Of a stretch of 64,000 nucleotides of DNA, positions 2,295 through 28,225 are shown piece after piece; positions within the stretch are counted from its first letter, which is position 1, and each line of letters begins with the position of its first letter. The stretch spans positions 52,018,001 to 52,082,000 of the forward strand of contig OZ024744.1 of NCBI GenBank assembly GCA_964016885.1, read 5' to 3'. Source of the DNA: Eledone cirrhosa (Eukaryota). Below the pieces are notes generated by a model. It was not told the DNA's origin. It was given only the letters and a program-made list of their open reading frames with translations, and ran no database searches. A program made the position numbers and the translations under genes.

Positions 2295-3097
<803 letters not shown>

Positions 3098-3145
3098 TAA
3101 TAAATGGAAACTATATTTATAAACCCATAATTATTTTATTATATA

Positions 3146-6100: not shown

Positions 6101-7648
6101 GCTGGGTTAGGGATTTCAGCCGAAATGAAGCTGTCTATGGCATTTGAATTGATTTTATCAGCTAACCAAATCAAAATGTGAGCATGTGGCAGCCCTTGTT
6201 TTTGCCATTCGACGGTGAACATGTCACATTTTACAACCCCAAATACCTGACCTTTATGATTAAAGCCATGAGTTTAGCCAGTTTCAGTCTGAACACTCTA
6301 GCAATGAGGTCATGTCTGTTCGAAAAATCTTGCCGAGGAAAAGGTTCATGGATTACATTCCGATTCATATGTCTATAGCATTAATCTGTTATATGAAGTG
6401 TTATTTTGCGGGTTGTTATTTACAATAAGCCGATTGAAAATGCCCCAGATAAGCCGTATGTCAATACGGAACGCTCAATACGGAACGCTCCACTGCAGTG
6501 TTGTCATATAGGCAGTGAAGAGTGACAGAGAGTAAAGCAGTTAAATTATAGAGAGGGGAAATATGCGGAACGCTCCATTTGATCATATACATTGTTTCTC
6601 TCTCCAGTGTTGTCATATAGGGAGTGAAGAGCGACAGAGAGAGTAAAGCAGTTAAATTATAGAGAGGGGGAATGATCATGATCGAATTTTGCCCTTATTG
6701 TTGATTGATTTGAAATTTTTTTTTTCATGACCTTCTCCTGACCAAAAGCAATAATTGTCCCGACTTTGAATAGAATCCCGTGAAAAAAGTTTTCTCATTA
6801 ATTTTTTGTCTCATATTGAGAAAAACAAAGAAAGAAAATTACAAAAAGGACAACAATAAAATATAATGTCATTGCTGAGAATCATGTAAATAAATGCTTA
6901 AGCGACGTTATTGTTACGTTTGTTGTTTTATAAATTCATCTGTTGCTTTTGAATATTTGTTATTTGATGTAAAATGTAAGTGTGGAAAATGTAACGTTGA
7001 GAGAGCAGTATGTATTTAGTGTTATCGGCTTTTTAAATTTTGATATTTGATGTATGAGTGTCGTTATGACTGTTTTTTGCTTAGTTATCAAAGTCTTTTT
7101 CGCGTTCCCGAACGAAGAGGGGGAATGATCTATTATATATAGAGAGAAGAGCGACGGAGAGAGTGAAGCTAGTGTTAAACCTCGAAGCATGAAGAGAGTA
7201 AAGCAGTTAAATTATAGAGACTGGGGAATAATCTATTGTAGAGAGAGGGAAGAGCGACGGAGCGAGTAAAGCTATGGTTGTTGTATAAATCGATGTGTTG
7301 CTTAGGTTTCAAAGTTTGTGTCGCGTTCCTTCAAAAGAATTTTGTCGTTGTTCTAAATTGTAACCTTTTAAAGAGAGTTGCAACATGTATGTAGTTTCAT
7401 ATATTTTTGATGGTAAGAGTGAGAGGAATGAAGCGTGTAAGAGAGAGGGTTACAGCATGTATTTAGTTTTATCGATTTTTTTTCATAGAAGCAGGAAATT
7501 TTTGGCAAAAATAATTACGCGTTGACCTGCCCTGGTAAATTTGGAGCACATTGGAACAAAAATCATCAAAATCGGTAAAGAAATGTGGAAATGTATAAAA
7601 ATCATATACACACACAGACAAACATCTACCGTTTTATGTATAGAGAGA
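3146..7648 (-). mobile_element. Helitron, internally deleted, both termini intact
   Basis: Minus strand starts A|TCTCTCTATACATAAAA at 7648 and ends with hairpin CCCGAGCAACGCCGGG, then CTAAACTGCTAG|T at 3146. Joining the flanks restores the repeat seen uninterrupted at 10250-10340. Confidence 0.93.
3460..6330 (-). pseudogene. Helitron RepHel (HUH replicase plus PIF1-like helicase), frameshifted, N-terminus missing
   Basis: VEWQKQGLPHAHIL (HUH motif), KYICKYVNKG (catalytic Tyr motif), FLDAPG (start of Walker A), ERAILAPKN, QFPVKPCFAMSINKSQGQTL and FSHGQLYVACSRV spread over broken ORFs. Confidence 0.93.
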
Positions 7649-7699
7649 TATTTCAAGGGTAACCAAGGCAAATTATGGTGCGCTTTCATCAGATAAAAT
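7649..7699 (-). ncRNA. Hammerhead ribozyme 5' part; 3' part at 3133-3145, split by the Helitron; 5' part duplicated at 19603-19653
   Basis: ATTTTAT-CTGATGA-stem II-GAAA-TA|Helitron|TATA-TA-ATAAAAT; stem I is a perfect 7 bp once rejoined. Confidence 0.75.
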
Positions 7700-7781
7700 A
7701 CAGATTTGTTTTATAAAGTGGTTTATATTAGTTATAAAAAGTTTTAAGCTTGTTGAATCCCAACAAATTAAATATAACCTC

Positions 7782-7844
<63 letters not shown>

Positions 7845-7848
<4 letters not shown>

Positions 7849-8285
7849 TTCGATGAAAATCATAGGAAAACAGAGTCAAGATAATTTAATAAAACAATGA
7901 ATAAAAACAAAGAACAAGTTCCTTATATTAAAAAAAATCATCATTTTACGATCGTTTCTAGGATATATATGTGTGTTGGTATATATATCATATAGATTTA
8001 TGTAAAAATATTACAAACTATCAAAGGAAATATATATACTTTCCCATATATATGCTGTCTTCAGAAAAAATTATATATATATGTGAAGATATATATATTT
8101 CCTCTGATAGTTTGTAATATGTTTACATAGATCTATATGATATACATACCAACACACATATATATCCTAGAAACTATCGTAAAATGATGAATTTTTTAAT
8201 ATACGGAACTTGTTCTTTGTTTTTATTCATTGTTTTTATTAATTTATCTTGACTCAGTTTTCCTATGATTTTCATCGAAAATTGT
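7845..8285. repeat. Inverted repeat with ~195-bp arms carrying a hammerhead motif (Penelope-like/retrozyme-type relic)
   Basis: 7845-8040 is the reverse complement of 8088-8285; abuts (TA)n. Confidence 0.85.
7943..8070 (-). ncRNA. Type I hammerhead motif with ~100-nt stem II (copy at 19897-20024)
   Basis: TTT-CTGAAGA-c-AG.ATATATATG...CATATATAT.CT-a-GAAA-CGATCG-TA-AAA; stem I is short and appears truncated. Confidence 0.6.
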
Positions 8286-8429
8286 TGAATGCATCTTCTC
8301 TTTTCATGATATTTGGATTACATTGAGTTCTTCATACGGATTGGACACTACTGTATATTTTGGTAGATTTATCTACATATATATATATATTAAAGTTGCG
8401 ACGGTGAACAGAAAACAAATAAACGTGGA

Positions 8430-8612
8430 AGCGAAGAGGGTCGGACGCCATGCTTTGACGTATAGAGTTACGGCCCTTGCCATTCTGAGTTCAAATCTCG
8501 CCGAGGCTAACTTTGCCTTTCATGGCAAAAATAATTACGGAGTCGATAAAATAAAGTACCAGTAATGCACTGGATAATTGCTGGCCTTGTGCCAGACGTA
8601 GAAACAATTATT
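8430..8612 (+). mobile_element. tRNA-derived SINE, 5'-truncated (copy at 20384-20566)
   Basis: B box GAGTTCAAATC followed by ctttgcctttcat...gtcgataaaataaagtaccag; same family as 46577-46760. Confidence 0.8.
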
Positions 8613-8679
8613 AGTTTTTATATATATATATATATATACGTAACATGTATCTGTGTTTGAATGTATTTATGCATATAAG

Positions 8680-8750
<71 letters not shown>

Positions 8751-8804
8751 TTCAGAAATAGCCGTCGAAACGGCTTGAGCTCTGCCGTCGAGGTCATACC
8801 TTTT

Positions 8805-8845
<41 letters not shown>

Positions 8846-9014
8846 TTATATGCATATATATATACATACTTATATGCATAAATACATTCAAACATACATT
8901 GAAACACACATATATAATACGAATATGCATAATACTTATATACATACATGTATACCTGCATACATATGTATAAATGCATTGGCACACATAGATTGATATA
9001 TATATATGATCTAT

Positions 9015-9055
<41 letters not shown>

Positions 9056-9344
9056 ATGTGTGTGTTTCAGCTAATATATATATTTCACCTATATATATAT
9101 ATATATATTGAAAATCCTATTTAGGTGCAACACGTGTTCTTTAATATGGTTCGATAATTGTTATTGAATTGATGGAAACTGTATCGAACTCAGCCTTTTG
9201 ACTGTGTGCTGTACCAACTTTGGATATAAAGCTTATTTTTTACTATATTGCCCACTCTACTACCCCAAATATCGAGTACTCTGGTGGGTAATGATCAGAC
9301 TGGCTTTTACTGCCTCCGTTCTGATATATATATATATGTGTGTA

Positions 9345-9420
<76 letters not shown>

Positions 9421-9521
9421 GAAACACACAGATACATGCGGACACACACATATATACATGAATGCATCCGCACCCAACTGCGAGTTAAGGGTGCCATCTA
9501 AATGTTTCTTCTCTCTTCATA

Positions 9522-9606
<85 letters not shown>

Positions 9607-9967
9607 ATGATATTAAATAAATGGAAACTATATTTATAAAACCATATTTATTTTATTATATATATTTCATCAGATAAGTTTCAGATAGTTTCCATTTATT
9701 TAATATCATTGAATATTTACTCCAGTAACTTGTTGAGTGCGCTAAATCAGTTATAAACATTTATGTTTGTCGGACTTCCAACAAATTAAATACAACTGCT
9801 ACTTATATATATATATATATGAAAAGTTCCGATCTAGCTGTCGAAAAGGCCAGAGCTCAGCCGTTGGGGACCTGCAATTTTCATATTACCCACTCAACTA
9901 CCCCAAGTATCGAGTACTGTCGTGCATTATGGTATCTTACCTGGTATCTTACCACAATCTCTTTGTT

Positions 9968-9998
<31 letters not shown>

Positions 9999-10139
9999 AG
10001 CAGAAGGGATATTCAATGTGTTGGTAATTCAACAAATATAAATGTTTATAGCTGATTCAGAGCACTCGACAAGTTTTCTGGAGTATAATATTCAATGATA
10101 TTAAATAAATGGAAACTATATTTATAAAACCATATTTAT

Positions 10140-10195
10140 TCTATTATATATATTTCATAGGTACCAACCTTTTGGTACGCTTTCATCAGATAACT
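10140..10195 (-). ncRNA. Type I hammerhead ribozyme motif (copy at 22092-22147)
   Basis: TTAT-CTGATGA-aagc GTACCAA aagg TTGGTAC ctat-GAAA-TATATA-TA-ATAG. Confidence 0.72.
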
Positions 10196-10249
10196 TGAAC
10201 CGTTAAGGTATGTTCCTTGGCTATGTCAAATTTTATAAAACAAACTTTG

Positions 10250-10310
10250 TATTTTATCTGATGAAAGCGTACCAAAGTTTTGCTACCCTTGAAATATATA
10301 TAATAGAATA
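10250..10310 (+). ncRNA. Type I hammerhead ribozyme motif (copy at 22202-22262)
   Basis: TATTTTAT-CTGATGA-aagcgtaccaaagttttgctaccctt-GAAA-TATATA-TA-ATAGAATA; 8-bp stem I with one GU pair; predicted cleavage after 10302. Confidence 0.8.
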
Positions 10311-10348
10311 AATATGGTTTTATAAATATAGTTTCCATTATTTAATAT

Positions 10349-10421
<73 letters not shown>

Positions 10422-10632
10422 TGTATATATAGATGAATAGTGACAAATTGAAACAGAAATAGATTGATAGATAGGCAGAAATCGATCGAGAGCGAAAGAG
10501 GGAGAGGGAAAGAGAAAGAGAGAAAGAGAGAAGGTAGATAGAGAATAGACATAAAATATATCATTTGATTGATGGATGTATGGATGGATAGATTGACATA
10601 CAGATAGGTAGATATACAGCTAATTAGCTCAG

Positions 10633-10649
10633 TAGATAGACAGACAGGC

Positions 10650-10714
<65 letters not shown>
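10633..10714. repeat. (GATA)n microsatellite at the LINE 3' junction
   Basis: Seen directly; also at 22583-22664 and 28199-28225. Confidence 0.95.
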
Positions 10715-10954
10715 TGCTTCTTTATTAGCCACAGGGACACAAAAGAAGGGGACAAATACAAAGGGGGAAGTTTACATACAATAAAAACGTGTAAAATGTT
10801 ATCACAAATGGAATTTAAAAAGTTAGTCGATTTTCCCCAATAGGGGGAGACAGTTCATATGGGTAACACATACCCCGAAAAAAAATGTGCAACCCTCATC
10901 TCCATGAGTACGAAGAGTTTGTACTCCTTTCCTCTCCTCCTCCTTTTCCTCAAC

Positions 10955-13900
10955 CTACAGGCTGATATAGAGAGAAGGCCCATTCACTCGGGCCATTCTC
11001 GCCACTTTCACCCACCTTTCATAAAACTTGCTGGGGTACAGCACCTCTCTCTCCATCCTGATTCTTCTTCCAAAGTGGTATTTGAAAAAAGAATCAGTTG
11101 TTGGCCGGAGAGAAAGGTGTCTGACCTCAGCCCTTTCAACCTTGTCCACCATACAACCTCTTTCGCCATAGCTATCCCACAAAGGAAAACCGCCTCTCCT
11201 TCGTTTTTGAAGGAGGGTGGCGGTTTGATCATGAAAATGGACTCAGTGGTCAACTGGATTGGTCCCACCCGCGACAATAGTCGTTCTACATAGCCCCACG
11301 GGTCAGTGACGCCCGGGCAGTGTATGAATGCGTGCGCGACGGTTTCTTCGTCTCGCACGCACCTCGGACAGATCTTTTTTGCAGGGTCCCTGCCCGGGCG
11401 CCCATGTCTGTAGAGCTTGTCTCGAACTGGTAGAGCTCCTCGGTAGCACTGCCAGGCCAGGGACTTTTGGAAGTTGTCCATCGGTCCCGGGCGGAAGTTC
11501 CTACCGAACAGACTGGCCAGTTCCTCTTCCTCTACGCCTAGAGTTTCACCGAGCGCGTCGTCGCACTTGCTGCGGATCAACCCTCTATAGAATGACGAAG
11601 TGGAGTCTCCACTGATCGCCGGGTCCGCCTGCCAGAGGGCTGTGAGCGCCTGAGCACATTCGATGTGCCAGTCGCCCATTTTCCTCGGTCTTTGCTTGAC
11701 CCAGGACTGCAGCTCGGTCAGCGAGACAAGTTGTGGGAAGGCTCGCCTCACGAACGGGGCCCACACCGGTTGTCCGGTGAGGAATACGTAGAGATGCCGC
11801 AGCCTAAGCGTTAGAAGGGTGTTGGCAGCAGATGGATCTTCTCACCAAAGGAGCCCGCCTCTTCCAAAGGAATCGGAAGAGCGCGTGTTCCATTTTGGCG
11901 AGCGTTTTGGCTGGACAAGGCACGACGGTCAAGCGGTAGTAGATGGTGGACGCTATAAAAGTGTTCGCAACCTCCGCTCGACCTTTCAAGGATAGTTTGC
12001 ACTCGGCCCACTTCTGGGTGAGTGCAAACACCTTGGCCGTCACTTCGTTCCAGTTCTTTTCCACCTGGAGGTCCGGACCAAACCAGACCCCGAGCAGCTT
12101 TATCGGTCCTTCCATCCAGCGTCCGACGGCGCCAAACCGATGGACTTGTCCCGGTTCAGCTTCGCTCCTGTGAAACTTTCGTATTCCTTCAGTAAGGTGA
12201 CGACTTCCTCGACTTGCGAGGCGCTCGACACCATTACTGTCACGTCGTCGGCGCAGGCCGACGCCGCTTTCCGCAGTCCCGGTTCCAGGGGGATGCCCTG
12301 CAATAGCTCCAACTTCCGCAGTAGTGGCTCGAGAGTCAGTACGTACAGAAGGGAGGAGAGAGGGCATCCCTGTCGAATGGATCGCGTAATATGGTACGGC
12401 TCTGAGAGGTAGCCGTTCACCTTGACACTTGAGCAGATGTTGCTGTTGTGCATTGCAGCAATCCAGCCCCTGAACACGGGTCCGAAGCCTGCCGCTTCGA
12501 GCACCGCATCCAGGTAACGATGGTCAACCCTATCGAAAGCCTTAGACTGATCCAACTTGATCAGGGCCCCACCGAAGCCGGGTTTACACCCTACCCTCTC
12601 TATGATGTATCGCATGAGGTGGAGGTTGTCGTGTATGGACCTGGTGGGGATTGCGCATGTCTGCGCAATCCCGACCAGGTTCTCGACGACAAGCGCCAGC
12701 CTCTTTGCCATCACCTTGGCCAAAATCTGTAACTCTGTGTGTAGCAGAGTTATGGGCCGGAAGTTGCCTATGTCACCTCCCTTATTCTTGTCCTTCCTGA
12801 TTAGTGTGACCACGCCCCCGGTCACAGAACTGGGAATTATCCCGTTCTGCTGCCAGTTACAGTAGACCGCTTCCAGGAGACCGGAGAATAAGTCCGGCAT
12901 TGCTACGTAAAATTCGTAGGGTAGACCGTCGAGACCTGGAGATTTGCGTTTGCCGCACTGGCTCAGCGCGTCCCCTATCTCAGTGGTTGAAATCGGCTTT
13001 TCGCAGAACTTTGCCTCGCTTTCCGAGAGTCGCGGTAGGCCGTCGATGTATGGGCCGAAATCCATAGCCTCTCTCGGCGTCCCCCCCCCCCCCCCGAACA
13101 GCTGAGCAAAGTGCCGCTGAAAAGCCGCACACATCTGCTTCGGCACACGTATCACGCGTCCGCTTTGGTCCTTCAAAGACCGAATCGTGGACTTGTTGCC
13201 ACTTTTTGCCTCCGTCACTCGGGCCCAGCTAACAGCTTTGGCTCCCTAGTTTCCCAGAGCACGTATTTTGCTTCTGACAACGAAGCCCTCGTGCTTTGCG
13301 TCGAAGAACTGGTCCAAGGCCGTTCTCGTTGCTAGCACGCTGGCTACGTTGCCACTTCTAATTGCCTCTTCTACTTTGTATACCAGTTCCTTCTCGGTTC
13401 TATTTCTATCTAACGCTAATTCTTTACTAAAAACTATCGAGTCTAATCTAACTGCCCTCTTGAGAGAGTACCACCATCTGTTGTTGACAATGGCCCCTGT
13501 CAAGTGCTGTTTAACTAAAGTGCTAATCCGTCTACTGTAGGCTTAGCTTGTCGGTAACGACAAGTTCAGCTTCCAGTAGCCGGGTCCTTGTCTATGGGTT
13601 CTATCAAGGTTGGCCATGCAGGTCACTAGTTTGTGATCTGAATAGGCAACCATGAACATTTGTGGACAGCTTAACATGTCCCTATCCATCTTTCTAACTA
13701 GAACCCTATCTAGGTACGATCTAGATGTTCCGCTACGATTACTCCACGTCCACAGTGGCGCAGTCGGAAAATCTAGTCGATATCTATCGGCCAGGTCAAA
13801 TCGGTCGATTAACTGTTTGAGGCTGTTACACCCACCTTTATCGGGACATGCTCCCACATAGTCCCAATGTGCATCTAGGATTCCATTCCAGTCCCCCAAT

Positions 13901-14313
13901 AAAAGCAAGGAGCGGGACGTTCCCAGAAAACTCTCTAGACGTTTGAAGAAGTCTGGCTGCGGTGTCCCGGATGGGGCATATGCGGCCACCAGCCTGAAGG
14001 CTCCACCTTCACTACCGTCAACGTCTAGGACCACCAGTCGACCCTCCGGGTCCAGATGTACCGTCTGTGTTACGAGGCCCAGGTGTTTCCGCAGCAAAAC
14101 GGCAACTCCGCTCCCACCCCCCGGTTGACAGAGAGATGCGTAGATCTCAAAGTCATCGAAGATGGGGGCCAGCTGTCGCTCGCTGTGGATCCTGGACTCG
14201 CAAATGGCTACCCCATCCATAATGTGCGACCTGAGGTCGTTTAAGAGTTTGCCCTGTTTCCAGGGCATCCCCAGGCCGCGTACGTTCACACATCCAACTC
14301 TTATATTGGCCAT
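10955..14313 (-). pseudogene. ORF2 of A1 (APE endonuclease, RT, C-terminal zinc finger), disrupted
   Basis: MANIRVGCVNVRGL, GDWN, YLDR, SDH; KSPGLDG, FRPITLL, LDQSKAFDRV, RQGCPLS; YADD mutated to CADD; stops and deletions. Confidence 0.92.
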
Positions 14314-14346
14314 GTTGGTGCTGAAAAGTTAAAAGAGGAAAAGAGA

Positions 14347-16026
14347 TCACTCACCCTTCGTCTCCTGGGGACCAGGCCGCACGATTTCCATGGGGGTGTT
14401 GGAGGGGTTGTCTGGATGGGTGGTGGTTTCCGGCGGGGTGGGAACGAGATGTTTGGTGGGGTGGGGTCTGGTGGGATGGGGGTGTATGGGGTGGGGAGAC
14501 ATTTGAGAAGGACTCGGTTGAGTGGTTTCACGCAGGAATTCCCCACATCCTTTCGTTTTGTTGTAGGTATTTTGTTTTCAGGAGGTGGGGGTTTTGTTTG
14601 TGATGTTTTTGTTGTTTGTGTTGGTGGTTGTATGTTTGTGGTAGTGTTTGCTGGTTTTTTGCTTTTGTGATGTCTTTTCTTTCTTTTCGAGCGATGGGGT
14701 TCTCCCTCGTCTTCACTGGGTGATGGCGAGATAGCCTCATCTGTTGTATCGTCTGTGTGATTGGGGAGGGGTATGTCTTGGGGAGCTGTTGTGTCTGTAT
14801 GTGATTTTGCAGTGGTTTTAGGTGAAGTGGGGTTGGGTGGGACTGTGTTTGTTGTGGTTATTTTTGTGTGTTGGTGTTGTTGTTGTGGTGGTGTTGGCGG
14901 TTGTGTTGTTTTGATGGGTGTCGGCAGAAGAGCCTTTTTTGGTTCATTAATTTAGGACAGGAAGCCCCAAGGTGACCCCTGCTAAAGCAATGGTAACATG
15001 AAGGCCGCCTACCCTCAACCGAAAAGTTTATGTAGGTGAGTGCGCCCAGGAGTACACGCTGTGGGATCATAGCTATTCGCTCTGGGCTCATTTGCACCAG
15101 AACTTCAATGCTAGTCCCATTGAATACATCTCTGGGGGACTTGCCTACTGACAGTATTCTGTCTTCATCAAAATTGATGAAGCCGCACAGTATCCACCAT
15201 ATGTTCACCTTTGGTGTGACACTCGTGATTCTGATCTTTTGTGTCCTTTTTCCCATGTATGTAGGGAAAAAGGTGTACAGGTTGGATACAATTGGCGACA
15301 CAGAGTAATTTTGGGTCGTCAATTGATCCTTCATGAATACCGAAATACTCCCAAAAAGTTTGCTTCTTTGAATGAATGCAATATCATTCATTGAATTTTT
15401 GAAAACCAGTTAAATTTCTTTCTGTGACAATTGGCCTGGTTTTCGGGTAGAATTGGAAACTGTCCTAAAAACTATCGTTTTGAGAGTAGTTTCCTTGCGA
15501 ATTTCTACCGGAGAATTGATGCTGAAAGCACCATTTTTTTCGAAACTGACATATCTCCTAGCGTCCTTTAAAAGTTGTTCAGCATTTGTTATGTCGAGAT
15601 ATATCAATTCTTCCTTTTTTTGAACTTTCTCTGCAAAGGAGTTTTTGGTTTCTTTGTGGAATCCGTATTGGTGGTGTTGTCATTATTGTTGTTATTGTTG
15701 TTATTCTTGTTGTCACCGATGTTGGTATTATCCGTATTTTCCTTGGTTTTGTTGTTGTCTTTGATGCTGGTGTTATTGGTGTTGTCTTTATTTTTTTCTT
15801 TGTTGTTGTTACCATTGTTGCTTTTATCATCATTATTGGTGTTGCTGTTATTTTTGTTGTCATTGAATTGTTTGGTGTCATTTGTGTTGTTTGAATATGA
15901 ATTCGTTTTTATATTTTCATTTCGTCTTTCCATCTCTATAGTATCTAGTGAAGAAGACGTTGTTGACTGCGAGCTTGGTAGTCTTACCGCCTCTCCACCA
16001 CCATTATCGTTGGACGCAGCGTTCAT
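14347..16026 (-). pseudogene. ORF1 of A1 (Asn-rich N-terminus, gag-like CCHC knuckle), frameshifted
   Basis: CYHCFSRGHLGASC (CX2CX4HX4C); FFPTYMGK and NIWWIL blocks shared with ORF1 of copy C. Confidence 0.85.
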
Positions 16027-16254
16027 AACGTAATCAAAATTTTACAATATTTTTTTTCCAAGATTCGATGGAGAAAAAATTTTAAAATGGATATTCCGCC
16101 CCTGTAGGGGCAAAAATGAGTTGACCCACCACCTGAAGGTTCAGACGGGGAGGCAAATTACACAAGGATATAAAATTTAACTAAAAACTCACGTTTTTTT
16201 TCTTACATAAATTAACGGAAACTTCTCCGCGAAGTTACACACGTCTGATAGATA

Positions 16255-19200
16255 TATTTCTTTATTAGCCACAGGGGCACAAAAGAAGGGGACAAATACA
16301 AAGGGGGAAGTTTACATACAATAAAAACGTGTAAAATGTTATCACAGATGGAATTTAAAAGTTAGTCGATTTTCCCCAATAGAGGGAGACAGTTTATATG
16401 GGTAACACAGACCCCCGAAAAAAATGTGCAACCCTCATCTCCAGGAGTACGAAGAGCTTGTACTCCTTTCCTCTCCTCCTCCTTTTCCTCAACCTACAGG
16501 CTGATATAGAGAGAAGGCCCATTCACTCGGGCCATTCTCGCCACTTTCACCCACCTTTCATAAAACTTGCTGGGGTACAGCACCTCTCTCTCCATCCTGA
16601 TTCTTCTTCCAAAGTGGTATTTGAAAAAAAGAATCAGTTGTTGGCCGGAGAGAAAGGTGTCTGACCTCAGCCCTTTCAACCTTGTCCACCATACAACCTC
16701 TTTCGCCATAGCTATCACACAAAGGAAAACCGCCTCTCCTTCGTTTTTGAAGGAGGGTGGCGGTTTGATCATGACAATGGACTCGGTGGTCAACTGGATT
16801 GGTCCCACCCGCGACAATAGTCGTTCCACATAGCCCCACAGGTCAGTGACGCCCGGGCAGTGTATGAATGCGTGCGCGACGGTTTCTTCGTCTCGCACGC
16901 ACCTCGGGCAGATCTTTTTTGCAGGGTCCCTGCCCGGGCGCCCATGTCTGTAGAGCTTGTCTCGAACTGGTAGAGCTCCTCGGTAGCACTGCCAGGCCAG
17001 GGACTTTTGGAAGTTGTCCATCGGTCCCGGGCGGAAGGTCCTACCGAACAGACTGGCCAGTTCATCTTCCTCCACGCCTAGAGTTTCACCGAGCGCGTCG
17101 TCGCACTTGCTGCGGACCAACCCTCTATAGAATGACGAAGTGGAGTCTCCACTGATCGCCGGGTCCGCCTGCCAGAGGGCTGTGAGCGCCTGAGCACATT
17201 CGATGTGCCAGTCGCCCATTTTCCTCGGTCTCTGCTTGACCCAGGACTGCAGCTCGGTCAGCGAGACGAGTCGTGGGAAGGCTCGCCTCACGAACGGGGC
17301 CCACACCGGTTGTCCGGTGAGGAATACGTAGAGATGCCGCAGCCTGAGCGCGTGTTTGCGCATCGTCAACCACGGCATCCCCAGCCCTCCGTTAGAAGGG
17401 TGTTGGCAGCAGATGGATCTTCTTACCAAAGGAGCCCGCCTCTTCCAAAGGAATCGGAAGAGGGCGCGCTCCATTTTGGCGAGCGTTTTGGCTGGACAAG
17501 GCACGACGGTCAAGCGGTAGTAGATGGCGGACGCTATAAAAGTGTTCGCCACCTCCGCTCGACCTTTCAAGGATAGTTTGCACTCGGCCCACTTCTGGGT
17601 GAGTGCAAACACCTTGGCCGTCACTTCGTTCCAGTTCTTCTCCACCTGGAGGTCCGGACCAAACCAGACCCCGAGCAGCTTTACCGGTCCTTCCGTCCAG
17701 CGTCCGACGACGCCATCGGAAGGCATCGGTCTGCCTCTCCACGATCCGAGTTGCAAACCGATGGACTTGTCCCGGTTCAGCTTCGCTCCTGTGAGACTTT
17801 CGTATTCCTTTAGTAAGGTGCCGACTTCCTCGATTTGCGAGGCGCTCGACACCATTACTGTCACGTCGTCGGCGTAGGCCGACGCCGCTTTCCGCAGTCC
17901 CGGTTCCAGAGGGATGCCCTGCAATAGCTCCAGCTTCCGCAGTAGTGGCTCGAGAGTCAGTACGTACAGAAGGGAGGAGAGAGGGCATCCCTGTCGAATG
18001 GATCGCGTAATATGGAACGGCTCCGAGAGGTAACCGTTCACCTTGACCCTTGAGCAGATGTTGCTGTTGTGCATTGCAGCAATCCAGCCCCTGAACACGG
18101 GTCCGAAGCCTGCCGCCTCGAGCACCGCATCCAGGTAACGATGGTCAACCCTATCGAAAGCCTTAGACTGATCCAAGTTGATCAGGGCCCCACCGAAGCC
18201 GGGTTTACACCCTACCCTCTCTATGATGTATCGCATGAGGTGGAGGTTGTCGTGTATGGACCTGGTCGGGATCGCGCATGTCTGCGCTTCTCCCACCAGG
18301 TTCTCGACGACAAGCGCCAGCCTCTTTGCCAACACCTTGGCCAAAATCTGTAACTCTGTGTTTAGCAGAGTTATGGGCCGGAAGTTGCCTATGTCATCCC
18401 CCTTATTCTCGTCCTTCCTGATTAGTGTGACCACGCCCCCGGTTACAGAATTGGGAATTCTCCCGTTCTGTTGCCAGTTGCAGTAGACCGCTTCCAGGAG
18501 ACCGGAGAATAAGTCCGGCATTGCTACGTAAAATTCGTAGGGTAGACCGTCGAGACCTGGAGATTTGCGTTTGCCGCATTGGCTCAGCGCGTCCCCTATC
18601 TCAGTGGCTGAAATCGGCTTTTCGCAGAACTTCGCCTCGCCGTCCGAGAGTCGCGGTAGGCCGTCGAGGTATGGACCGAAATCCATAGCCTCTCCCGGCG
18701 CGCCGCTCCCCCCGAACAGCCGAGCAAAGTGCCGCTGAAAAGCCGCACACATCTGCTTCGGCTCACGTATCACGCGTCCGTTTTGGTCCTTCAAAGACCG
18801 AATCGTGGACTTGTTGCCACTTTTTGCCTCCGTCACTCGGGCCCAGCTAACAGCTTTGGCTCCCTCGTTTCCCAGAGCACGTATTTTGCTTCTGACAACG
18901 CAGCCCTCGTGCTTTGCGTCGAAGAACTGGTCCAAGGCCGTTCTCGTTGCTAGCACGCTGGCTACGTTGCCACTTCTAATAGCCTCTTCTACTTTATCTA
19001 CCAGTTCCTTCTCGGTTCTATTTCTATCTAACGCTAATTCTTTACTAAAAACTATCGAGTCTAATCTAACTGCCCTCTTGAGAGAGTACCACCATCTGTT
19101 GTTGACAATGGCCCCTGTCAAGTGCTGTTTAACTAAAGTGCTAATCCGTCTACTGTAGGCTTTGCTTGTCGGTAACGACAAGTTCAGCTTCCAGTAGCCG

Positions 19201-19521
19201 GGTCCTTGTCTATGGGTTCTATCAAGGTTGGCCATGCAGGTCACTAGTTTGTGATCTGAATAGGCAACCATGAACATTTGTGGACAGCTTAACATGTCCC
19301 TATCCTTATTTCTAACTAGAACCCTATCTAGGTACGATCTAGATGTTCCGCTACGATTACTCCACGTCCACAGTGGCGCAGTCGGAAAATCTAGTCGATA
19401 TCTATCGGCCAGGTCAAATCGGTCGATTAACTGTTTGAGGCTGTTACACCCACCTTTATCGGGACATGCTCCCACATAGTCCCAATGTGCATCTAGGATT
19501 CCATTCCAGTCCCCCAATAAA
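16255..19521 (-). mobile_element. Tx1-group LINE copy B, 5'-truncated within the endonuclease, remaining ORF2 intact
   Basis: Open frame from LLGDWN to the stop with YADD intact; 3' end AATAAAGAAATATATCTATC; 4-nt filler CGTC (19522-19525) at the 5' junction. Confidence 0.93.
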
Positions 19522-19643
19522 CGTCTCGGTAAAGAAATGTGGAAATGTATAAAAATCATATACACACACAGACAAACATCTACCGTTTTATGTATAGAGA
19601 GATATTTCAAGGGTAACCAAGGCAAATTATGGTGCGCTTTCAT
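16494..19643 (-). CDS. 1049-aa open frame: ~40 aa from flanking repeat/Helitron end fused to LINE ORF2 (partial APE, complete RT, zinc finger)
   Basis: ORF track; RT motifs intact (QGCPLS, YADD); CPRC-X8-HAFIHC. No evidence of expression. Confidence 0.55.
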   Translation of the reverse strand: MKAHHNLPWLPLKYLSIHKTVDVCLCVYMIFIHFHISLPRRLLGDWNGILDAHWDYVGACPDKGGCNSLKQLIDRFDLADRYRLDFPTAPLWTWSNRSGTSRSYLDRVLVRNKDRDMLSCPQMFMVAYSDHKLVTCMANLDRTHRQGPGYWKLNLSLPTSKAYSRRISTLVKQHLTGAIVNNRWWYSLKRAVRLDSIVFSKELALDRNRTEKELVDKVEEAIRSGNVASVLATRTALDQFFDAKHEGCVVRSKIRALGNEGAKAVSWARVTEAKSGNKSTIRSLKDQNGRVIREPKQMCAAFQRHFARLFGGSGAPGEAMDFGPYLDGLPRLSDGEAKFCEKPISATEIGDALSQCGKRKSPGLDGLPYEFYVAMPDLFSGLLEAVYCNWQQNGRIPNSVTGGVVTLIRKDENKGDDIGNFRPITLLNTELQILAKVLAKRLALVVENLVGEAQTCAIPTRSIHDNLHLMRYIIERVGCKPGFGGALINLDQSKAFDRVDHRYLDAVLEAAGFGPVFRGWIAAMHNSNICSRVKVNGYLSEPFHITRSIRQGCPLSSLLYVLTLEPLLRKLELLQGIPLEPGLRKAASAYADDVTVMVSSASQIEEVGTLLKEYESLTGAKLNRDKSIGLQLGSWRGRPMPSDGVVGRWTEGPVKLLGVWFGPDLQVEKNWNEVTAKVFALTQKWAECKLSLKGRAEVANTFIASAIYYRLTVVPCPAKTLAKMERALFRFLWKRRAPLVRRSICCQHPSNGGLGMPWLTMRKHALRLRHLYVFLTGQPVWAPFVRRAFPRLVSLTELQSWVKQRPRKMGDWHIECAQALTALWQADPAISGDSTSSFYRGLVRSKCDDALGETLGVEEDELASLFGRTFRPGPMDNFQKSLAWQCYRGALPVRDKLYRHGRPGRDPAKKICPRCVRDEETVAHAFIHCPGVTDLWGYVERLLSRVGPIQLTTESIVMIKPPPSFKNEGEAVFLCVIAMAKEVVWWTRLKGLRSDTFLSGQQLILFFKYHFGRRIRMEREVLYPSKFYERWVKVARMARVNGPSLYISL

Positions 19644-19735
19644 CAGATAAAATACAGATTTGTTTTATAAAGTGGTTTATATTAGTTATAAAAAGTTTTA
19701 AGCTTGTTGAATCCCAACAAATTAAATATAACCTC

Positions 19736-19802
<67 letters not shown>

Positions 19803-20633
19803 TTCGATGAAAATCATAGGAAAACAGAGTCAAGATAATTTAATAAAACAATGAATAAAAACAAAGAACAAGTTCCTTATATTAAAAAAAATCATCATTT
19901 TACGATCGTTTCTAGGATATATATGTGTGTTGGTATATATATCATATAGATTTATGTAAAAATATTACAAACTATCAAAGGAAATATATATACTTTCCCA
20001 TATATATGCTGTCTTCAGAAAAAATTATATATATATGTGAAGATATATATATTTCCTCTGATAGTTTGTAATATGTTTACATAGATCTATATGATATACA
20101 TACCAACACACATATATATCCTAGAAACTATCGTAAAATGATGAATTTTTTAATATACGGAACTTGTTCTTTGTTTTTATTCATTGTTTTTATTAATTTA
20201 TCTTGACTCAGTTTTCCTATGATTTTCATCGAAAATTGTTGAATGCATCTTCTCTTTTCATGATATTTGGATTACATTGAGTTCTTCATACGGATTGGAC
20301 ACTACTGTATATTTTGGTAGATTTATCTACATATATATATATATTAAAGTTGCGACGGTGAACAGAAAACAAATAAACGTGGAAGCGAAGAGGGTCGGAC
20401 GCCATGCTTTGACGTATAGAGTTACGGCCCTTGCCATTCTGAGTTCAAATCTCGCCGAGGCTAACTTTGCCTTTCATGGCAAAAATAATTACGGAGTCGA
20501 TAAAATAAAGTACCAGTAATGCACTGGATAATTGCTGGCCTTGTGCCAGACGTAGAAACAATTATTAGTTTTTATATATATATATATATATACGTAACAT
20601 GTATCTGTGTTTGAATGTATTTATGCATATAAG

Positions 20634-20702
<69 letters not shown>

Positions 20703-20756
20703 TTCAGAAATAGCCGTCGAAACGGCTTGAGCTCTGCCGTCGAGGTCATACCTTTT

Positions 20757-20797
<41 letters not shown>

Positions 20798-20966
20798 TTA
20801 TATGCATATATATATACATACTTATATGCATAAATACATTCAAACATACATTGAAACACACATATATAATACGAATATGCATAATACTTATATACATACA
20901 TGTATACCTGCATACATATGTATAAATGCATTGGCACACATAGATTGATATATATATATGATCTAT

Positions 20967-21007
<41 letters not shown>

Positions 21008-21296
21008 ATGTGTGTGTTTCAGCTAATATATATATTTCACCTATATATATATATATATATTGAAAATCCTATTTAGGTGCAACACGTGTTCTTTAATATG
21101 GTTCGATAATTGTTATTGAATTGATGGAAACTGTATCGAACTCAGCCTTTTGACTGTGTGCTGTACCAACTTTGGATATAAAGCTTATTTTTTACTATAT
21201 TGCCCACTCTACTACCCCAAATATCGAGTACTCTGGTGGGTAATGATCAGACTGGCTTTTACTGCCTCCGTTCTGATATATATATATATGTGTGTA

Positions 21297-21372
<76 letters not shown>

Positions 21373-21473
21373 GAAACACACAGATACATGCGGACACACA
21401 CATATATACATGAATGCATCCGCACCCAACTGCGAGTTAAGGGTGCCATCTAAATGTTTCTTCTCTCTTCATA

Positions 21474-21558
<85 letters not shown>

Positions 21559-21919
21559 ATGATATTAAATAAATGGAAACTATATTTATAAAACCATATT
21601 TATTTTATTATATATATTTCATCAGATAAGTTTCAGATAGTTTCCATTTATTTAATATCATTGAATATTTACTCCAGTAACTTGTTGAGTGCGCTAAATC
21701 AGTTATAAACATTTATGTTTGTCGGACTTCCAACAAATTAAATACAACTGCTACTTATATATATATATATATGAAAAGTTCCGATCTAGCTGTCGAAAAG
21801 GCCAGAGCTCAGCCGTTGGGGACCTGCAATTTTCATATTACCCACTCAACTACCCCAAGTATCGAGTACTGTCGTGCATTATGGTATCTTACCTGGTATC
21901 TTACCACAATCTCTTTGTT

Positions 21920-21950
<31 letters not shown>

Positions 21951-22300
21951 AGCAGAAGGGATATTCAATGTGTTGGTAATTCAACAAATATAAATGTTTA
22001 TAGCTGATTCAGAGCACTCGACAAGTTTTCTGGAGTATAATATTCAATGATATTAAATAAATGGAAACTATATTTATAAAACCATATTTATTCTATTATA
22101 TATATTTCATAGGTACCAACCTTTTGGTACGCTTTCATCAGATAACTTGAACCGTTAAGGTATGTTCCTTGGCTATGTCAAATTTTATAAAACAAACTTT
22201 GTATTTTATCTGATGAAAGCGTACCAAAGTTTTGCTACCCTTGAAATATATATAATAGAATAAATATGGTTTTATAAATATAGTTTCCATTATTTAATAT

Positions 22301-22371
<71 letters not shown>

Positions 22372-22599
22372 TGTATATATAGATGAATAGTGACAAATTG
22401 AAACAGAAATAGATTGATAGATAGGCAGAAATCGATCGAGAGCGAAAGAGGGAGAGGGAAAGAGAAAGAGAGAAAGAGAGAAGGTAGATAGAGAATAGAC
22501 ATAAAATATATCATTTGATTGATGGATGTATGGATGGATAGATTGACATACAGATAGGTAGATATACAGCTAATTAGCTCAGTAGATAGACAGACAGGC

Positions 22600-22664
<65 letters not shown>

Positions 22665-25600
22665 TGCTTCTTTATTAGCCACAGGGACACAAAAGAAGGG
22701 GACAAATACAAAGGGGGAAGTTTACATACAATAAAAACGTGTAAAATGTTATCACAAATGGAATTTAAAAAGTTAGTCGATTTTCCCCAATAGGGGGAGA
22801 CAGTTCATATGGGTAACACATACCCCGAAAAAAAATGTGCAACCCTCATCTCCATGAGTACGAAGAGTTTGTACTCCTTTCCTCTCCTCCTCCTTTTCCT
22901 CAACCTACAGGCTGATATAGAGAGAAGGCCCATTCACTCGGGCCATTCTCGCCACTTTCACCCACCTTTCATAAAACTTGCTGGGGTACAGCACCTCTCT
23001 CTCCATCCTGATTCTTCTTCCAAAGTGGTATTTGAAAAAAGAATCAGTTGTTGGCCGGAGAGAAAGGTGTCTGACCTCAGCCCTTTCAACCTTGTCCACC
23101 ATACAACCTCTTTCGCCATAGCTATCCCACAAAGGAAAACCGCCTCTCCTTCGTTTTTGAAGGAGGGTGGCGGTTTGATCATGAAAATGGACTCAGTGGT
23201 CAACTGGATTGGTCCCACCCGCGACAATAGTCGTTCTACATAGCCCCACGGGTCAGTGACGCCCGGGCAGTGTATGAATGCGTGCGCGACGGTTTCTTCG
23301 TCTCGCACGCACCTCGGACAGATCTTTTTTGCAGGGTCCCTGCCCGGGCGCCCATGTCTGTAGAGCTTGTCTCGAACTGGTAGAGCTCCTCGGTAGCACT
23401 GCCAGGCCAGGGACTTTTGGAAGTTGTCCATCGGTCCCGGGCGGAAGTTCCTACCGAACAGACTGGCCAGTTCCTCTTCCTCTACGCCTAGAGTTTCACC
23501 GAGCGCGTCGTCGCACTTGCTGCGGATCAACCCTCTATAGAATGACGAAGTGGAGTCTCCACTGATCGCCGGGTCCGCCTGCCAGAGGGCTGTGAGCGCC
23601 TGAGCACATTCGATGTGCCAGTCGCCCATTTTCCTCGGTCTTTGCTTGACCCAGGACTGCAGCTCGGTCAGCGAGACAAGTTGTGGGAAGGCTCGCCTCA
23701 CGAACGGGGCCCACACCGGTTGTCCGGTGAGGAATACGTAGAGATGCCGCAGCCTAAGCGTTAGAAGGGTGTTGGCAGCAGATGGATCTTCTCACCAAAG
23801 GAGCCCGCCTCTTCCAAAGGAATCGGAAGAGCGCGTGTTCCATTTTGGCGAGCGTTTTGGCTGGACAAGGCACGACGGTCAAGCGGTAGTAGATGGTGGA
23901 CGCTATAAAAGTGTTCGCAACCTCCGCTCGACCTTTCAAGGATAGTTTGCACTCGGCCCACTTCTGGGTGAGTGCAAACACCTTGGCCGTCACTTCGTTC
24001 CAGTTCTTTTCCACCTGGAGGTCCGGACCAAACCAGACCCCGAGCAGCTTTATCGGTCCTTCCATCCAGCGTCCGACGGCGCCAAACCGATGGACTTGTC
24101 CCGGTTCAGCTTCGCTCCTGTGAAACTTTCGTATTCCTTCAGTAAGGTGACGACTTCCTCGACTTGCGAGGCGCTCGACACCATTACTGTCACGTCGTCG
24201 GCGCAGGCCGACGCCGCTTTCCGCAGTCCCGGTTCCAGGGGGATGCCCTGCAATAGCTCCAACTTCCGCAGTAGTGGCTCGAGAGTCAGTACGTACAGAA
24301 GGGAGGAGAGAGGGCATCCCTGTCGAATGGATCGCGTAATATGGTACGGCTCTGAGAGGTAGCCGTTCACCTTGACACTTGAGCAGATGTTGCTGTTGTG
24401 CATTGCAGCAATCCAGCCCCTGAACACGGGTCCGAAGCCTGCCGCTTCGAGCACCGCATCCAGGTAACGATGGTCAACCCTATCGAAAGCCTTAGACTGA
24501 TCCAACTTGATCAGGGCCCCACCGAAGCCGGGTTTACACCCTACCCTCTCTATGATGTATCGCATGAGGTGGAGGTTGTCGTGTATGGACCTGGTGGGGA
24601 TTGCGCATGTCTGCGCAATCCCGACCAGGTTCTCGACGACAAGCGCCAGCCTCTTTGCCATCACCTTGGCCAAAATCTGTAACTCTGTGTGTAGCAGAGT
24701 TATGGGCCGGAAGTTGCCTATGTCACCTCCCTTATTCTTGTCCTTCCTGATTAGTGTGACCACGCCCCCGGTCACAGAACTGGGAATTATCCCGTTCTGC
24801 TGCCAGTTACAGTAGACCGCTTCCAGGAGACCGGAGAATAAGTCCGGCATTGCTACGTAAAATTCGTAGGGTAGACCGTCGAGACCTGGAGATTTGCGTT
24901 TGCCGCACTGGCTCAGCGCGTCCCCTATCTCAGTGGTTGAAATCGGCTTTTCGCAGAACTTTGCCTCGCTTTCCGAGAGTCGCGGTAGGCCGTCGATGTA
25001 TGGGCCGAAATCCATAGCCTCTCTCGGCGTCCCCCCCCCCCCCCCCCGAACAGCTGAGCAAAGTGCCGCTGAAAAGCCGCACACATCTGCTTCGGCACAC
25101 GTATCACGCGTCCGCTTTGGTCCTTCAAAGACCGAATCGTGGACTTGTTGCCACTTTTTGCCTCCGTCACTCGGGCCCAGCTAACAGCTTTGGCTCCCTA
25201 GTTTCCCAGAGCACGTATTTTGCTTCTGACAACGAAGCCCTCGTGCTTTGCGTCGAAGAACTGGTCCAAGGCCGTTCTCGTTGCTAGCACGCTGGCTACG
25301 TTGCCACTTCTAATTGCCTCTTCTACTTTGTATACCAGTTCCTTCTCGGTTCTATTTCTATCTAACGCTAATTCTTTACTAAAAACTATCGAGTCTAATC
25401 TAACTGCCCTCTTGAGAGAGTACCACCATCTGTTGTTGACAATGGCCCCTGTCAAGTGCTGTTTAACTAAAGTGCTAATCCGTCTACTGTAGGCTTAGCT
25501 TGTCGGTAACGACAAGTTCAGCTTCCAGTAGCCGGGTCCTTGTCTATGGGTTCTATCAAGGTTGGCCATGCAGGTCACTAGTTTGTGATCTGAATAGGCA

Positions 25601-28206
25601 ACCATGAACATTTGTGGACAGCTTAACATGTCCCTATCCATCTTTCTAACTAGAACCCTATCTAGGTACGATCTAGATGTTCCGCTACGATTACTCCACG
25701 TCCACAGTGGCGCAGTCGGAAAATCTAGTCGATATCTATCGGCCAGGTCAAATCGGTCGATTAACTGTTTGAGGCTGTTACACCCACCTTTATCGGGACA
25801 TGCTCCCACATAGTCCCAATGTGCATCTAGGATTCCATTCCAGTCCCCCAATAAAAGCAAGGAGCGGGACGTTCCCAGAAAACTCTCTAGACGTTTGAAG
25901 AAGTCTGGCTGCGGTGTCCCGGATGGGGCATATGCGGCCACCAGCCTGAAGGCTCCACCTTCACTACCGTCAACGTCTAGGACCACCAGTCGACCCTCCG
26001 GGTCCAGATGTACCGTCTGTGTTACGAGGCCCAGGTGTTTCCGCAGCAAAACGGCAACTCCGCTCCCACCCCCCGGTTGACAGAGAGATGCGTAGATCTC
26101 AAAGTCATCGAAGATGGGGGCCAGCTGTCGCTCGCTGTGGATCCTGGACTCGCAAATGGCTACCCCATCCATAATGTGCGACCTGAGGTCGTTTAAGAGT
26201 TTGCCCTGTTTCCAGGGCATCCCCAGGCCGCGTACGTTCACACATCCAACTCTTATATTGGCCATGTTGGTGCTGAAAAGTTAAAAGAGGAAAAGAGATC
26301 ACTCACCCTTCGTCTCCTGGGGACCAGGCCGCACGATTTCCATGGGGGTGTTGGAGGGGTTGTCTGGATGGGTGGTGGTTTCCGGCGGGGTGGGAACGAG
26401 ATGTTTGGTGGGGTGGGGTCTGGTGGGATGGGGGTGTATGGGGTGGGGAGACATTTGAGAAGGACTCGGTTGAGTGGTTTCACGCAGGAATTCCCCACAT
26501 CCTTTCGTTTTGTTGTAGGTATTTTGTTTTCAGGAGGTGGGGGTTTTGTTTGTGATGTTTTTGTTGTTTGTGTTGGTGGTTGTATGTTTGTGGTAGTGTT
26601 TGCTGGTTTTTTGCTTTTGTGATGTCTTTTCTTTCTTTTCGAGCGATGGGGTTCTCCCTCGTCTTCACTGGGTGATGGCGAGATAGCCTCATCTGTTGTA
26701 TCGTCTGTGTGATTGGGGAGGGGTATGTCTTGGGGAGCTGTTGTGTCTGTATGTGATTTTGCAGTGGTTTTAGGTGAAGTGGGGTTGGGTGGGACTGTGT
26801 TTGTTGTGGTTATTTTTGTGTGTTGGTGTTGTTGTTGTGGTGGTGTTGGCGGTTGTGTTGTTTTGATGGGTGTCGGCAGAAGAGCCTTTTTTGGTTCATT
26901 AATTTAGGACAGGAAGCCCCAAGGTGACCCCTGCTAAAGCAATGGTAACATGAAGGCCGCCTACCCTCAACCGAAAAGTTTATGTAGGTGAGTGCGCCCA
27001 GGAGTACACGCTGTGGGATCATAGCTATTCGCTCTGGGCTCATTTGCACCAGAACTTCAATGCTAGTCCCATTGAATACATCTCTGGGGGACTTGCCTAC
27101 TGACAGTATTCTGTCTTCATCAAAATTGATGAAGCCGCACAGTATCCACCATATGTTCACCTTTGGTGTGACACTCGTGATTCTGATCTTTTGTGTCCTT
27201 TTTCCCATGTATGTAGGGAAAAAGGTGTACAGGTTGGATACAATTGGCGACACAGAGTAATTTTGGGTCGTCAATTGATCCTTCATGAATACCGAAATAC
27301 TCCCAAAAAGTTTGCTTCTTTGAATGAATGCAATATCATTCATTGAATTTTTGAAAACCAGTTAAATTTCTTTCTGTGACAATTGGCCTGGTTTTCGGGT
27401 AGAATTGGAAACTGTCCTAAAAACTATCGTTTTGAGAGTAGTTTCCTTGCGAATTTCTACCGGAGAATTGATGCTGAAAGCACCATTTTTTTCGAAACTG
27501 ACATATCTCCTAGCGTCCTTTAAAAGTTGTTCAGCATTTGTTATGTCGAGATATATCAATTCTTCCTTTTTTTGAACTTTCTCTGCAAAGGAGTTTTTGG
27601 TTTCTTTGTGGAATCCGTATTGGTGGTGTTGTCATTATTGTTGTTATTGTTGTTATTCTTGTTGTCACCGATGTTGGTATTATCCGTATTTTCCTTGGTT
27701 TTGTTGTTGTCTTTGATGCTGGTGTTATTGGTGTTGTCTTTATTTTTTTCTTTGTTGTTGTTACCATTGTTGCTTTTATCATCATTATTGGTGTTGCTGT
27801 TATTTTTGTTGTCATTGAATTGTTTGGTGTCATTTGTGTTGTTTGAATATGAATTCGTTTTTATATTTTCATTTCGTCTTTCCATCTCTATAGTATCTAG
27901 TGAAGAAGACGTTGTTGACTGCGAGCTTGGTAGTCTTACCGCCTCTCCACCACCATTATCGTTGGACGCAGCGTTCATAACGTAATCAAAATTTTACAAT
28001 ATTTTTTTTCCAAGATTCGATGGAGAAAAAATTTTAAAATGGATATTCCGCCCCTGTAGGGGCAAAAATGAGTTGACCCACCACCTGAAGGTTCAGACGG
28101 GGAGGCAAATTACACAAGGATATAAAATTTAACTAAAAACTCACGTTTTTTTTCTTACATAAATTAACGGAAACTTCTCCGCGAAGTTACACACGTCTGA
28201 TAGATA
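19526..28206 (+). repeat. 8.68-kb direct duplication, copy 2
   Basis: Starts tcggtaaagaaatg (=7572) and ends acgtctgatagata (=16254). Confidence 0.97.
22665..28198 (-). mobile_element. Tx1-group LINE copy A2 (duplicate of A1)
   Basis: Shares A1's disabling mutations, plus a 2-nt longer poly-C near 25031. Confidence 0.93.
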
Positions 28207-28225
28207 GATAGATAGATAGATAGAT

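Follow-up and report, generated by a model that had tools for sequence, protein, structure and literature searches.

An 8.7-kb direct repeat around a chimeric GATA-targeting LINE in an Eledone cirrhosa assembly: a candidate retrotransposition-mediated duplication

Introduction

How does a long interspersed nuclear element (LINE) come to lie between two copies of the same 8.7 kb of DNA? The question is raised by a stretch of 64,000 nucleotides from Eledone cirrhosa (assembly GCA_964016885.1, contig OZ024744.1, positions 52,018,001 to 52,082,000; hereafter the window, in whose numbering coordinates are given), in which a 5'-truncated LINE, copy B, separates two long direct repeats. The target-site duplications (TSDs) of L1 elements are shorter than 20 bp (PMC10760644), with a median of 13 bp (PMC12016303). 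At 8.68 kb the duplication around B is far from the size of about 20 bp or less that characterizes canonical target-primed reverse transcription. Both the 5' joining of LINE cDNA and the origin of LINE-bridged duplications were still called unknown in a 2023 review (PMC10760644).

We consider that the repeat and copy B are, somewhat more probably than otherwise, the product of one retrotransposition event in which the new DNA strand changed template twice, the first time onto a neighbouring LINE, copy A. Searches were made in a 3.0-Gb genome assembly (G000), of which C1 and C5 are contigs; L-numbers denote fetched LINE loci or copies.

Results and discussion

The direct repeat

The features that make up the locus are as follows.

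7572..16254, no strand: left repeat copy, with the Helitron-like end, an AT-rich flank with microsatellites, a GATA tract, copy A and two GATA units
10715..16246, minus strand: LINE copy A, older and full-length, with broken open reading frames (ORFs); about 95-96% like the young family
16247..16254, plus strand: GATA target at the 3' end of B, the putative site of the first-strand nick
16255..19521, minus strand: LINE copy B, 3267 bp, with reverse transcriptase (RT) and zf-RVT; its 5' truncation falls inside the endonuclease domain
19522..19525, plus strand: filler CGTC, 4 nt between B and the right repeat
19526..28206, no strand: right repeat copy, with 0 substitutions and three slippage indels relative to the left copy
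22665..28198, minus strand: copy A', the duplicate of LINE copy A (self-BLAST and pairwise alignment)
28199..28225, plus strand: GATA tract that separates A' from the divergent LINE copy C, the probable pre-insertion target

Self-BLAST and base-by-base alignment place the two copies, of 8683 bp (left) and 8681 bp (right), in direct orientation. The absence of substitutions over 2 x 8.68 kb sets an upper 95% bound of 1.7e-4 per site on their divergence, and the indels are confined to simple repeats: a TA unit at each of 8684 and 10354, and two extra C in the poly-C run after 13080. Homology stops abruptly upstream of 7572/19526 and downstream of 16254/28206. Only B and the filler lie between the repeats, and both ends of B coincide with both ends of the repeat. 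A sequence-only reading of the window had described the near-identical repeats, the presence of only B and a 4-nt filler between them and the copying of an older LINE with the block, and the alignments bear it out on all of these points.

The 3' end of B adjoins the two-unit GATA tract. Because this tract is also the target of the family, the right end of the repeat is placed only to within a few GATA units. At the 19521/19526 junction LINE sequence passes through the filler into Helitron-like DNA with an overlap of at most 1 nt.

The duplicated block consists of the last 80 bp of the Helitron-like repeat, 3 kb of AT-rich flank, the GATA tract and copy A, and it contains eight long (TA)n tracts. 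No host gene was found in the block, the contents of which are repeats; no direct effect on the animal is therefore implied. A unique 219-bp piece of the block has exactly two 100% matches in G000, both in the window, and the search with it returned no second haplotype of the block from that assembly. A 19-mer across the junction occurs once in G000 with up to one mismatch allowed. The repeat-LINE-repeat structure is thus confirmed, in the assembly only. We rejected 3' transduction as its origin: on either side the block runs on into its native context, and there is no third copy. The duplicated flank also holds a palindromic (inverted-repeat) AT-rich element of about 440 bp at 7845-8283.

Copy B is young and has a neighbour-derived end

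Copy B can be divided into three parts.

16255..19308, minus strand: young-family part, young-type at 83 of 83 diagnostic sites
19309..19451, minus strand: putative template-change zone, 143 bp identical in the young family and A
19452..19521, minus strand: terminal patch with copy-A alleles at 19452, 19486 and 19517; donor 13834-13903 or its twin in A'

The same five sites distinguish B from all of its 29 nearest copies, and three of them lie within its last 70 bp. We took as diagnostic the 86 positions that separate the young copy L062 from neighbour A. B carries the young-type allele at the first 83 of these (to 19308) and the A-type allele at the last three, with no interleaving. Two exact patterns over pairs of the A-type alleles each gave three matches in 3.0 Gb, namely A, B and A'. 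Judged on these alleles, B is a chimera of young-family sequence and a final 70-213 nt from neighbour A, and because this end comes from A at least two template changes are recorded. The template-change zone is the fourth-longest identical stretch between B and A, and the donor segment lies 2.4 kb from the nick. Copying of the 5' end from local DNA, a feature of templated insertions resembling synthesis-dependent strand annealing (SDSA), is represented in B by the A-specific patch.

The first 2137 bp of B, its 3' part, are identical to a sister copy at G000:C5:58039433-58041566 over the whole length of that copy. Of the two differences outside the patch, one is common to this sister and the other lies outside it. 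At most one of them is therefore B's own. The two variants have 8 and 14 exact matches in G000 and coincide in B alone, and the source element of B is absent from the assembly. Six further copies have the rare variant of B; they are old, 95-97% like B in the region that aligns, and no long repeats accompany them. Given so few private differences in B and no substitution between the repeat copies, B is as young as the duplication; that the duplication is recent, as had been proposed, is upheld by this match of ages.

The ORF2 of B is uninterrupted over its retained 1008 codons. ORF1 and about the first 137 of the 1145 ORF2 codons are missing, and B consequently cannot be autonomous. The earlier description of B as the only copy with an undisrupted ORF2 holds for the codons that it retains and not beyond, as there are intact full-length copies elsewhere.

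The LINE family and its GATA target

ORF2 of the family encodes an AP endonuclease (Exo_endo_phos), RVT_1 and a C-terminal zf-RVT; the RT and zf-RVT domains were found in B and the endonuclease in copies A and C. Natural full-length copies are 5841 bp long with ORFs of 638 and 1145 amino acids, and three of the four that were translated have them intact. In one natural copy, L164, the separate 638-residue ORF1 contains a CX2CX4HX4C string, which we take to be a CCHC knuckle, and is accompanied by an ORF2 of 1145 residues. The best match of ORF2 to a solved structure is human L1 ORF2p (E 1e-45), with R2 proteins at 1e-22 or weaker. The nearest named protein match of the family is a hypothetical protein of Argonauta hians (63%). 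Among the matches returned in the protein search there was no named Tx1 reference; we assume the label Tx1 from anatomy and target specificity. These characters point to an L1/Tx1-type LINE with an AP endonuclease and a separate ORF1.

The family is large and young, with 723-7123 first-look candidates genome-wide. All 40 places returned for the family 3' end were fetched as 37 loci of 20 kb, and the young copies surveyed there have a GATA-type motif at the 3' end without exception (37/37). The 5' junction of most of them likewise lies in GATA or in a short repeat. Every one of the 30 loci fetched for the family 5' end runs on into GATA, and head-to-tail arrays form as a result; 20 tandem junctions in G000 share one short pattern, a new copy at the 5' end of an earlier one. 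Taken together, these junctions indicate a sequence-specific, microsatellite-targeting LINE.

Two further GATA-associated LINEs stand beyond the repeat in the window. Copy C (28226-33900) is about 79% like the young family and copy D (33940-38700) about 89%; next to the latter is an inverted LINE piece (38013-38720) in a twin-priming-like arrangement.

Switching to a neighbour at other loci

The 37-locus survey provided 16 adjacent pairs, nine of them with seven or more diagnostic sites. Three of these nine informative pairs (L108-L109, L124-L125 and L172-L173) have a clean switch from a young 3' part to a neighbour-type 5' part that ends exactly at the neighbour's end. Compared with the neighbour, the borrowed parts contain 0/83, 0/419 and 1/3787 substitutions, respectively. 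There is no young copy upstream of L108, L124 or L172, and the chimeras duplicate the 5' part of the neighbour, up to 3.8 kb of it. The other six informative pairs have no switch. A second set comprised the 20 tandem junctions, of which one is that of the window and one had already been counted; many of the copies in it are older and the yardstick suits them less. It yielded one more clean switch, on C1 near 212.96 Mb.

Several adjacent copies form patterns of another kind. At L130-L131, L142-L143 and L156-L157 two or three short copies share a 5' truncation point (556, 612 and 527 bp), and at L130 the same 40-nt piece, drawn from another part of a related LINE, follows each of them. We read these as local unit duplication of one insertion. 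About 1 Mb of C1 (211.9-213.0 Mb; L204-L213, L237 and L238) holds seven tandem junctions, six with the B-type short junction. Its arrays are related, share internally deleted units and seem to have been duplicated as blocks. In this region, near 212.057 Mb (L206-L207), a 355-bp LINE 5' end stands head-to-head with an inverted, 99% young full-length 5' half.

A model for the event

The locus presents the repeat, its two junctions, an A-specific patch, a young B, a GATA target and, in the same family, three other loci with a switch to the neighbour. Its geometry fits a retrotransposition-mediated tandem duplication: the junction is bridged by a single LINE whose 3' end lies at the GATA target and whose truncated 5' end lies at the breakpoint, and the ages match. 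To this extent, and with the GATA 3' end seen in 37/37 relatives, the retrotransposition-mediated duplication put forward in the sequence-only reading is retained. Its mechanism, direct capture of the cDNA at a break 8.7 kb away, is not, as an A-derived patch over the last 70-213 nt and a filler intervene.

We envisage the following order of steps, presumably within a single cell cycle. The endonuclease would nick the GATA tract at the 5' end of copy A, and about 3.05-3.2 kb of young-family RNA would be reverse transcribed. The free cDNA end would then pair with the matching place in neighbour A, which is 95% alike overall and identical there over 143 bp, and would be extended on A by 70-213 nt, to 13903; the template may have been A on the same molecule or on the sister chromatid. 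Having detached, the cDNA end would gain four bases and join at 7572 without homology. Host DNA synthesis, or the capture of a broken sister arm, could supply the flank and A again, after which the copied strand would rejoin the GATA tract before copy C. At L108, L124 and L172 extension would have reached the end of the neighbour; at B it would have failed and restarted 6.3 kb away. The event may have been inherited, as suggested solely by its presence in the assembly.

A broader proposal can be made tentatively, and we would at present put it below an even chance. Since this LINE targets the GATA tract that precedes its own older copies, the cDNA might routinely complete its integration by invading a neighbouring copy and not by awaiting a second cut. 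Roughly one insertion in ten, or a third of the insertions with a diverged relative beside them, would then give a young/old chimera with a duplication of 0.1-4 kb, and an invasion that collapsed would give a multi-kilobase duplication of unique DNA.

Alternative explanations

A number of observations weigh against the single event. Its steps cannot be ordered from sequence alone. None of the 37 surveyed young loci has a long duplication of unique flank, so that the homology-free joining step is without a second example. For the four surveyed copies with a non-GATA 5' junction there is no duplicate of the upstream flank within 60 kb downstream. Together with the bases that flank it, the filler matches 13937-13944 over 8 nt in inverted orientation, 34 nt farther along A, and 16241-16246 over 6 nt in direct orientation, where A has its 5' end; these matches do not exceed chance, since 5/144 alternative fillers do as well within 50 nt and 12/144 within 100 nt. 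The chimera on C1 near 212.96 Mb has an upstream young copy that matches its 3' part (two substitutions in 2.7 kb), and this young-chimera-old order points to later unequal exchange. No read or contig spans either junction of the repeat. Finally, the only identical sister of B also sits between long direct repeats, of 8518 bp.

This sister locus (G000:C5:58030919-58050082; L239, L230 and L231) lies inside an array whose 2.6-kb LINE units are internally deleted. Between the repeats there are six substitutions and a difference of one GATA unit. Each breakpoint falls in a GATA tract, and the array unit to the left of the insert is a mosaic, its 3' part being of one type and its 5' part of another. 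On account of the six substitutions and the mosaic of two array units, we rejected the locus as a second true long TSD. The structure more likely reflects an unequal crossover in which one array was filled and the other empty. A breakpoint in shared homology, as crossover would leave, is present at C5 and absent from the duplication around B. The C5 locus nevertheless shows that recombination, during or after insertion, can make a look-alike of a repeat-LINE-repeat structure.

Recombination after a normal insertion of B could have acted in the window too. A break or stalled fork in B would have been repaired from a sister or homologue without B, onto A and then 7572, or there would have been a crossover of B with a haplotype already bearing a tandem duplication of 6.3 kb (a 13903-to-7572 junction). 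Such a pseudo-TSD has a published precedent in HERV-K, where long direct repeats possibly arise from recombination and not from integration (PMC5488345). That case fits the C5 locus; HERV-K is a long-terminal-repeat element with repeats of about 100 bp (PMC5488345), whereas the duplication around B has a homology-free breakpoint. The left-hand mosaic at C5 is as predicted for unequal crossover between filled and empty forms, the C1 chimera has the order noted above, and the switch in B falls in one of the longest stretches that it shares with A. Against this, two or three separate events would be required on near-identical haplotypes and the repeats have no substitutions between them; the crossover and the homology-free junction would need to be 70-213 nt apart, within the last 7% of B; and G000 contains no haplotig without B or without the duplication. 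We regard later recombination as unlikely, but as a serious rival. An artefact of assembly, in which a chimeric molecule or the join of two haplotypes made the repeat, seems to us improbable. Slippage indels, the only differences between the repeats, would also be expected of consensus errors, and bases 19520-19525 have zero depth in contigs (over 19430-19590) of three runs from one sample, the fourth (restriction-site-associated DNA) run being empty; a hole of this kind proves nothing. Public short-read runs contain at most 0.59 of the words of the stretch, and the contigs of four runs over 15900-19735 were swamped by family copies. In two runs the Helitron-like end continues unbroken with a few other letters, which may be another individual or another copy of the repeat. 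The three runs with the hole contain only 0.56-0.59 of the words and other letters near the breakpoint, and they seemingly come from another individual. Moreover, a simple join of haplotypes would not yield a homology-free junction with a filler and a three-site local patch, and the rare variant of B recurs in its sister on another contig, with related chimeras at other loci.

The cDNA might instead have been captured directly at a second break, the A-type patch being acquired later by gene conversion. The geometry would be that of the tumour model (PMC7058536, Fig. 7b legend), and potential donors are near, A and A' lying 5.6 and 6.3 kb from the patch. We find this very doubtful: the patch stops no more than 4 nt short of the point where homology ends, there is no A-type site among the other 83, and at three other loci the borrowed part is at the same (5') end. 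There is also a route through RNA throughout, in which the RT would jump off the young RNA and onto a transcript that reads through A and its 3 kb of flank, and would copy this to the 5' end of A, so that the true TSD would be a few GATA units. The product would have the identical sequence, and the repeat does stop exactly at the 5' end of A plus two GATA units; the GATA target by itself explains the same end point. Two jumps would be needed, as well as a transcript of the same locus at its own site, and 8.7 kb with its (TA)n tracts would have been copied without a substitution. This route is highly improbable. The single event with two template changes is the explanation that we retain.

Relationship to known systems

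The strand-annealing model reportedly stems from Gilbert et al. in 2005, who are also said to have found chimeras with endogenous L1 copies in cultured cells. In the SDSA-like templated insertions local DNA (<250 bp) is copied onto the cDNA end during integration, as in B. Their templates are non-L1 sequences within about 15 bp of the site; in B a homologous LINE, 2.4 kb away from the nick, serves as template and, unlike in those cases, there is a second, homology-free jump that duplicates 8.7 kb.

The closest likeness is to the L1-bridged tandem duplications of human tumours, in which a single truncated LINE bridges a direct duplication with its 3' end at an endonuclease target (PMC7058536; bioRxiv 10.1101/2024.08.27.596794). 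One such duplication spans 22.6 Mb (Rodriguez-Martin et al. 2020, PMC7058536), and in tumours 14/152 retrotransposon-bridged rearrangements are tandem duplications, with 22 templated insertions also on record (bioRxiv 10.1101/2024.08.27.596794). Transfer of cDNA to nearby DNA has been described in tumours alongside the bridged duplications (bioRxiv 10.1101/2024.08.27.596794; PMC7058536), and a broken sister chromatid serves as the template in one model (PMC7058536, Fig. 7b legend). The duplication around B differs from these in being 8.7 kb and not megabases long, in occurring in a natural invertebrate assembly, in the GATA targeting of its element and in the neighbour patch and filler at the 5' end of the LINE.

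The fish LINE ZfL2-2 in chicken DT40 cells also gave a rare kilobase-scale duplication flanking an insertion, a 1228-bp TSD in 1/25 cases in wild-type cells (PMC2666801). That was an engineered assay in cultured cells, the duplication is seven times shorter and the accessible text notes no neighbour-derived patch (PMC2666801). The site-specific R1 element of Drosophila resembles the present family: its new copies enter the target repeat where an earlier one has its 5' end, and head-to-tail arrays build up (PMC2718515). The R1 target is ribosomal DNA, with 14-bp TSDs and rearrangements of 16-27 nt, and no kilobase-scale copying of a neighbour is noted in the part of that paper available (PMC2718515).

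We found neither a kilobase-scale LINE duplication in a natural invertebrate genome nor neighbour-derived 5' ends in a microsatellite-targeting LINE in the part of the literature searched, main texts without supplements. The LINE-bridged duplication is of a known kind, described for the most part from tumours or reporter assays; what is new is the marked stop-over on a neighbouring copy and its recurrence within the family. Diverged neighbouring copies act as natural markers of template change in an ordinary animal assembly, and owing to the size of the family (723-7123 candidates) the question of 5' joining becomes countable genome-wide. Events of this kind, if inherited, duplicate flanking DNA and rebuild old elements with young 3' ends. 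Were neighbour invasion indeed routine, this LINE family would constitute a high-copy archive, natural and inherited, of homology-directed 5' joining, and it would generate segmental duplications in a cephalopod-type genome.

Other features of the window

The sequence-only reading had included three ribozyme motifs in the duplicated block. Three hammerhead-core strings (CTGATGA...GAAA) are indeed present, at 7692 (minus strand), 10189 (minus) and 10258 (plus). They lie within a small AT-rich repeat, and two form an inverted pair. A scan for the core string gave four matches, the fourth (8064) within an AT repeat. Beyond these strings the ribozyme assignment has no support: no part of the window reached the gathering score in Rfam, the 52 weaker matches included no ribozyme family, and the three core strings fold no better than shuffled sequences (z -0.15, -1.64 and -0.30).

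The Helitron-like repeat into which the left breakpoint falls is listed below.

6019..7651, minus strand: Helitron-like repeat, a Rep fragment (Pfam Helitron_like_N, E 6e-8) and a terminal region ending near 7651

The breakpoint at 7572 lies about 80 bp inside this end and not at it, and a Helitron rolling-circle origin of the duplication found no support. The repeat belongs to a broken Helitron-like element at 3400-7651, with a Rep motif near 6200 and a weak helicase match near 3500; its non-coding end has 3095 first-look candidates in the genome. Elsewhere in the window there is a 216-bp direct repeat of 98% identity (56758-56973 and 57182-57395). Tandem repeats occupy 1-1960, 52217-52723, 62607-63119 and 63255-63546 and comprise long C/A-rich minisatellites, 13-bp and 28-bp arrays and an (ACT)97 tract.

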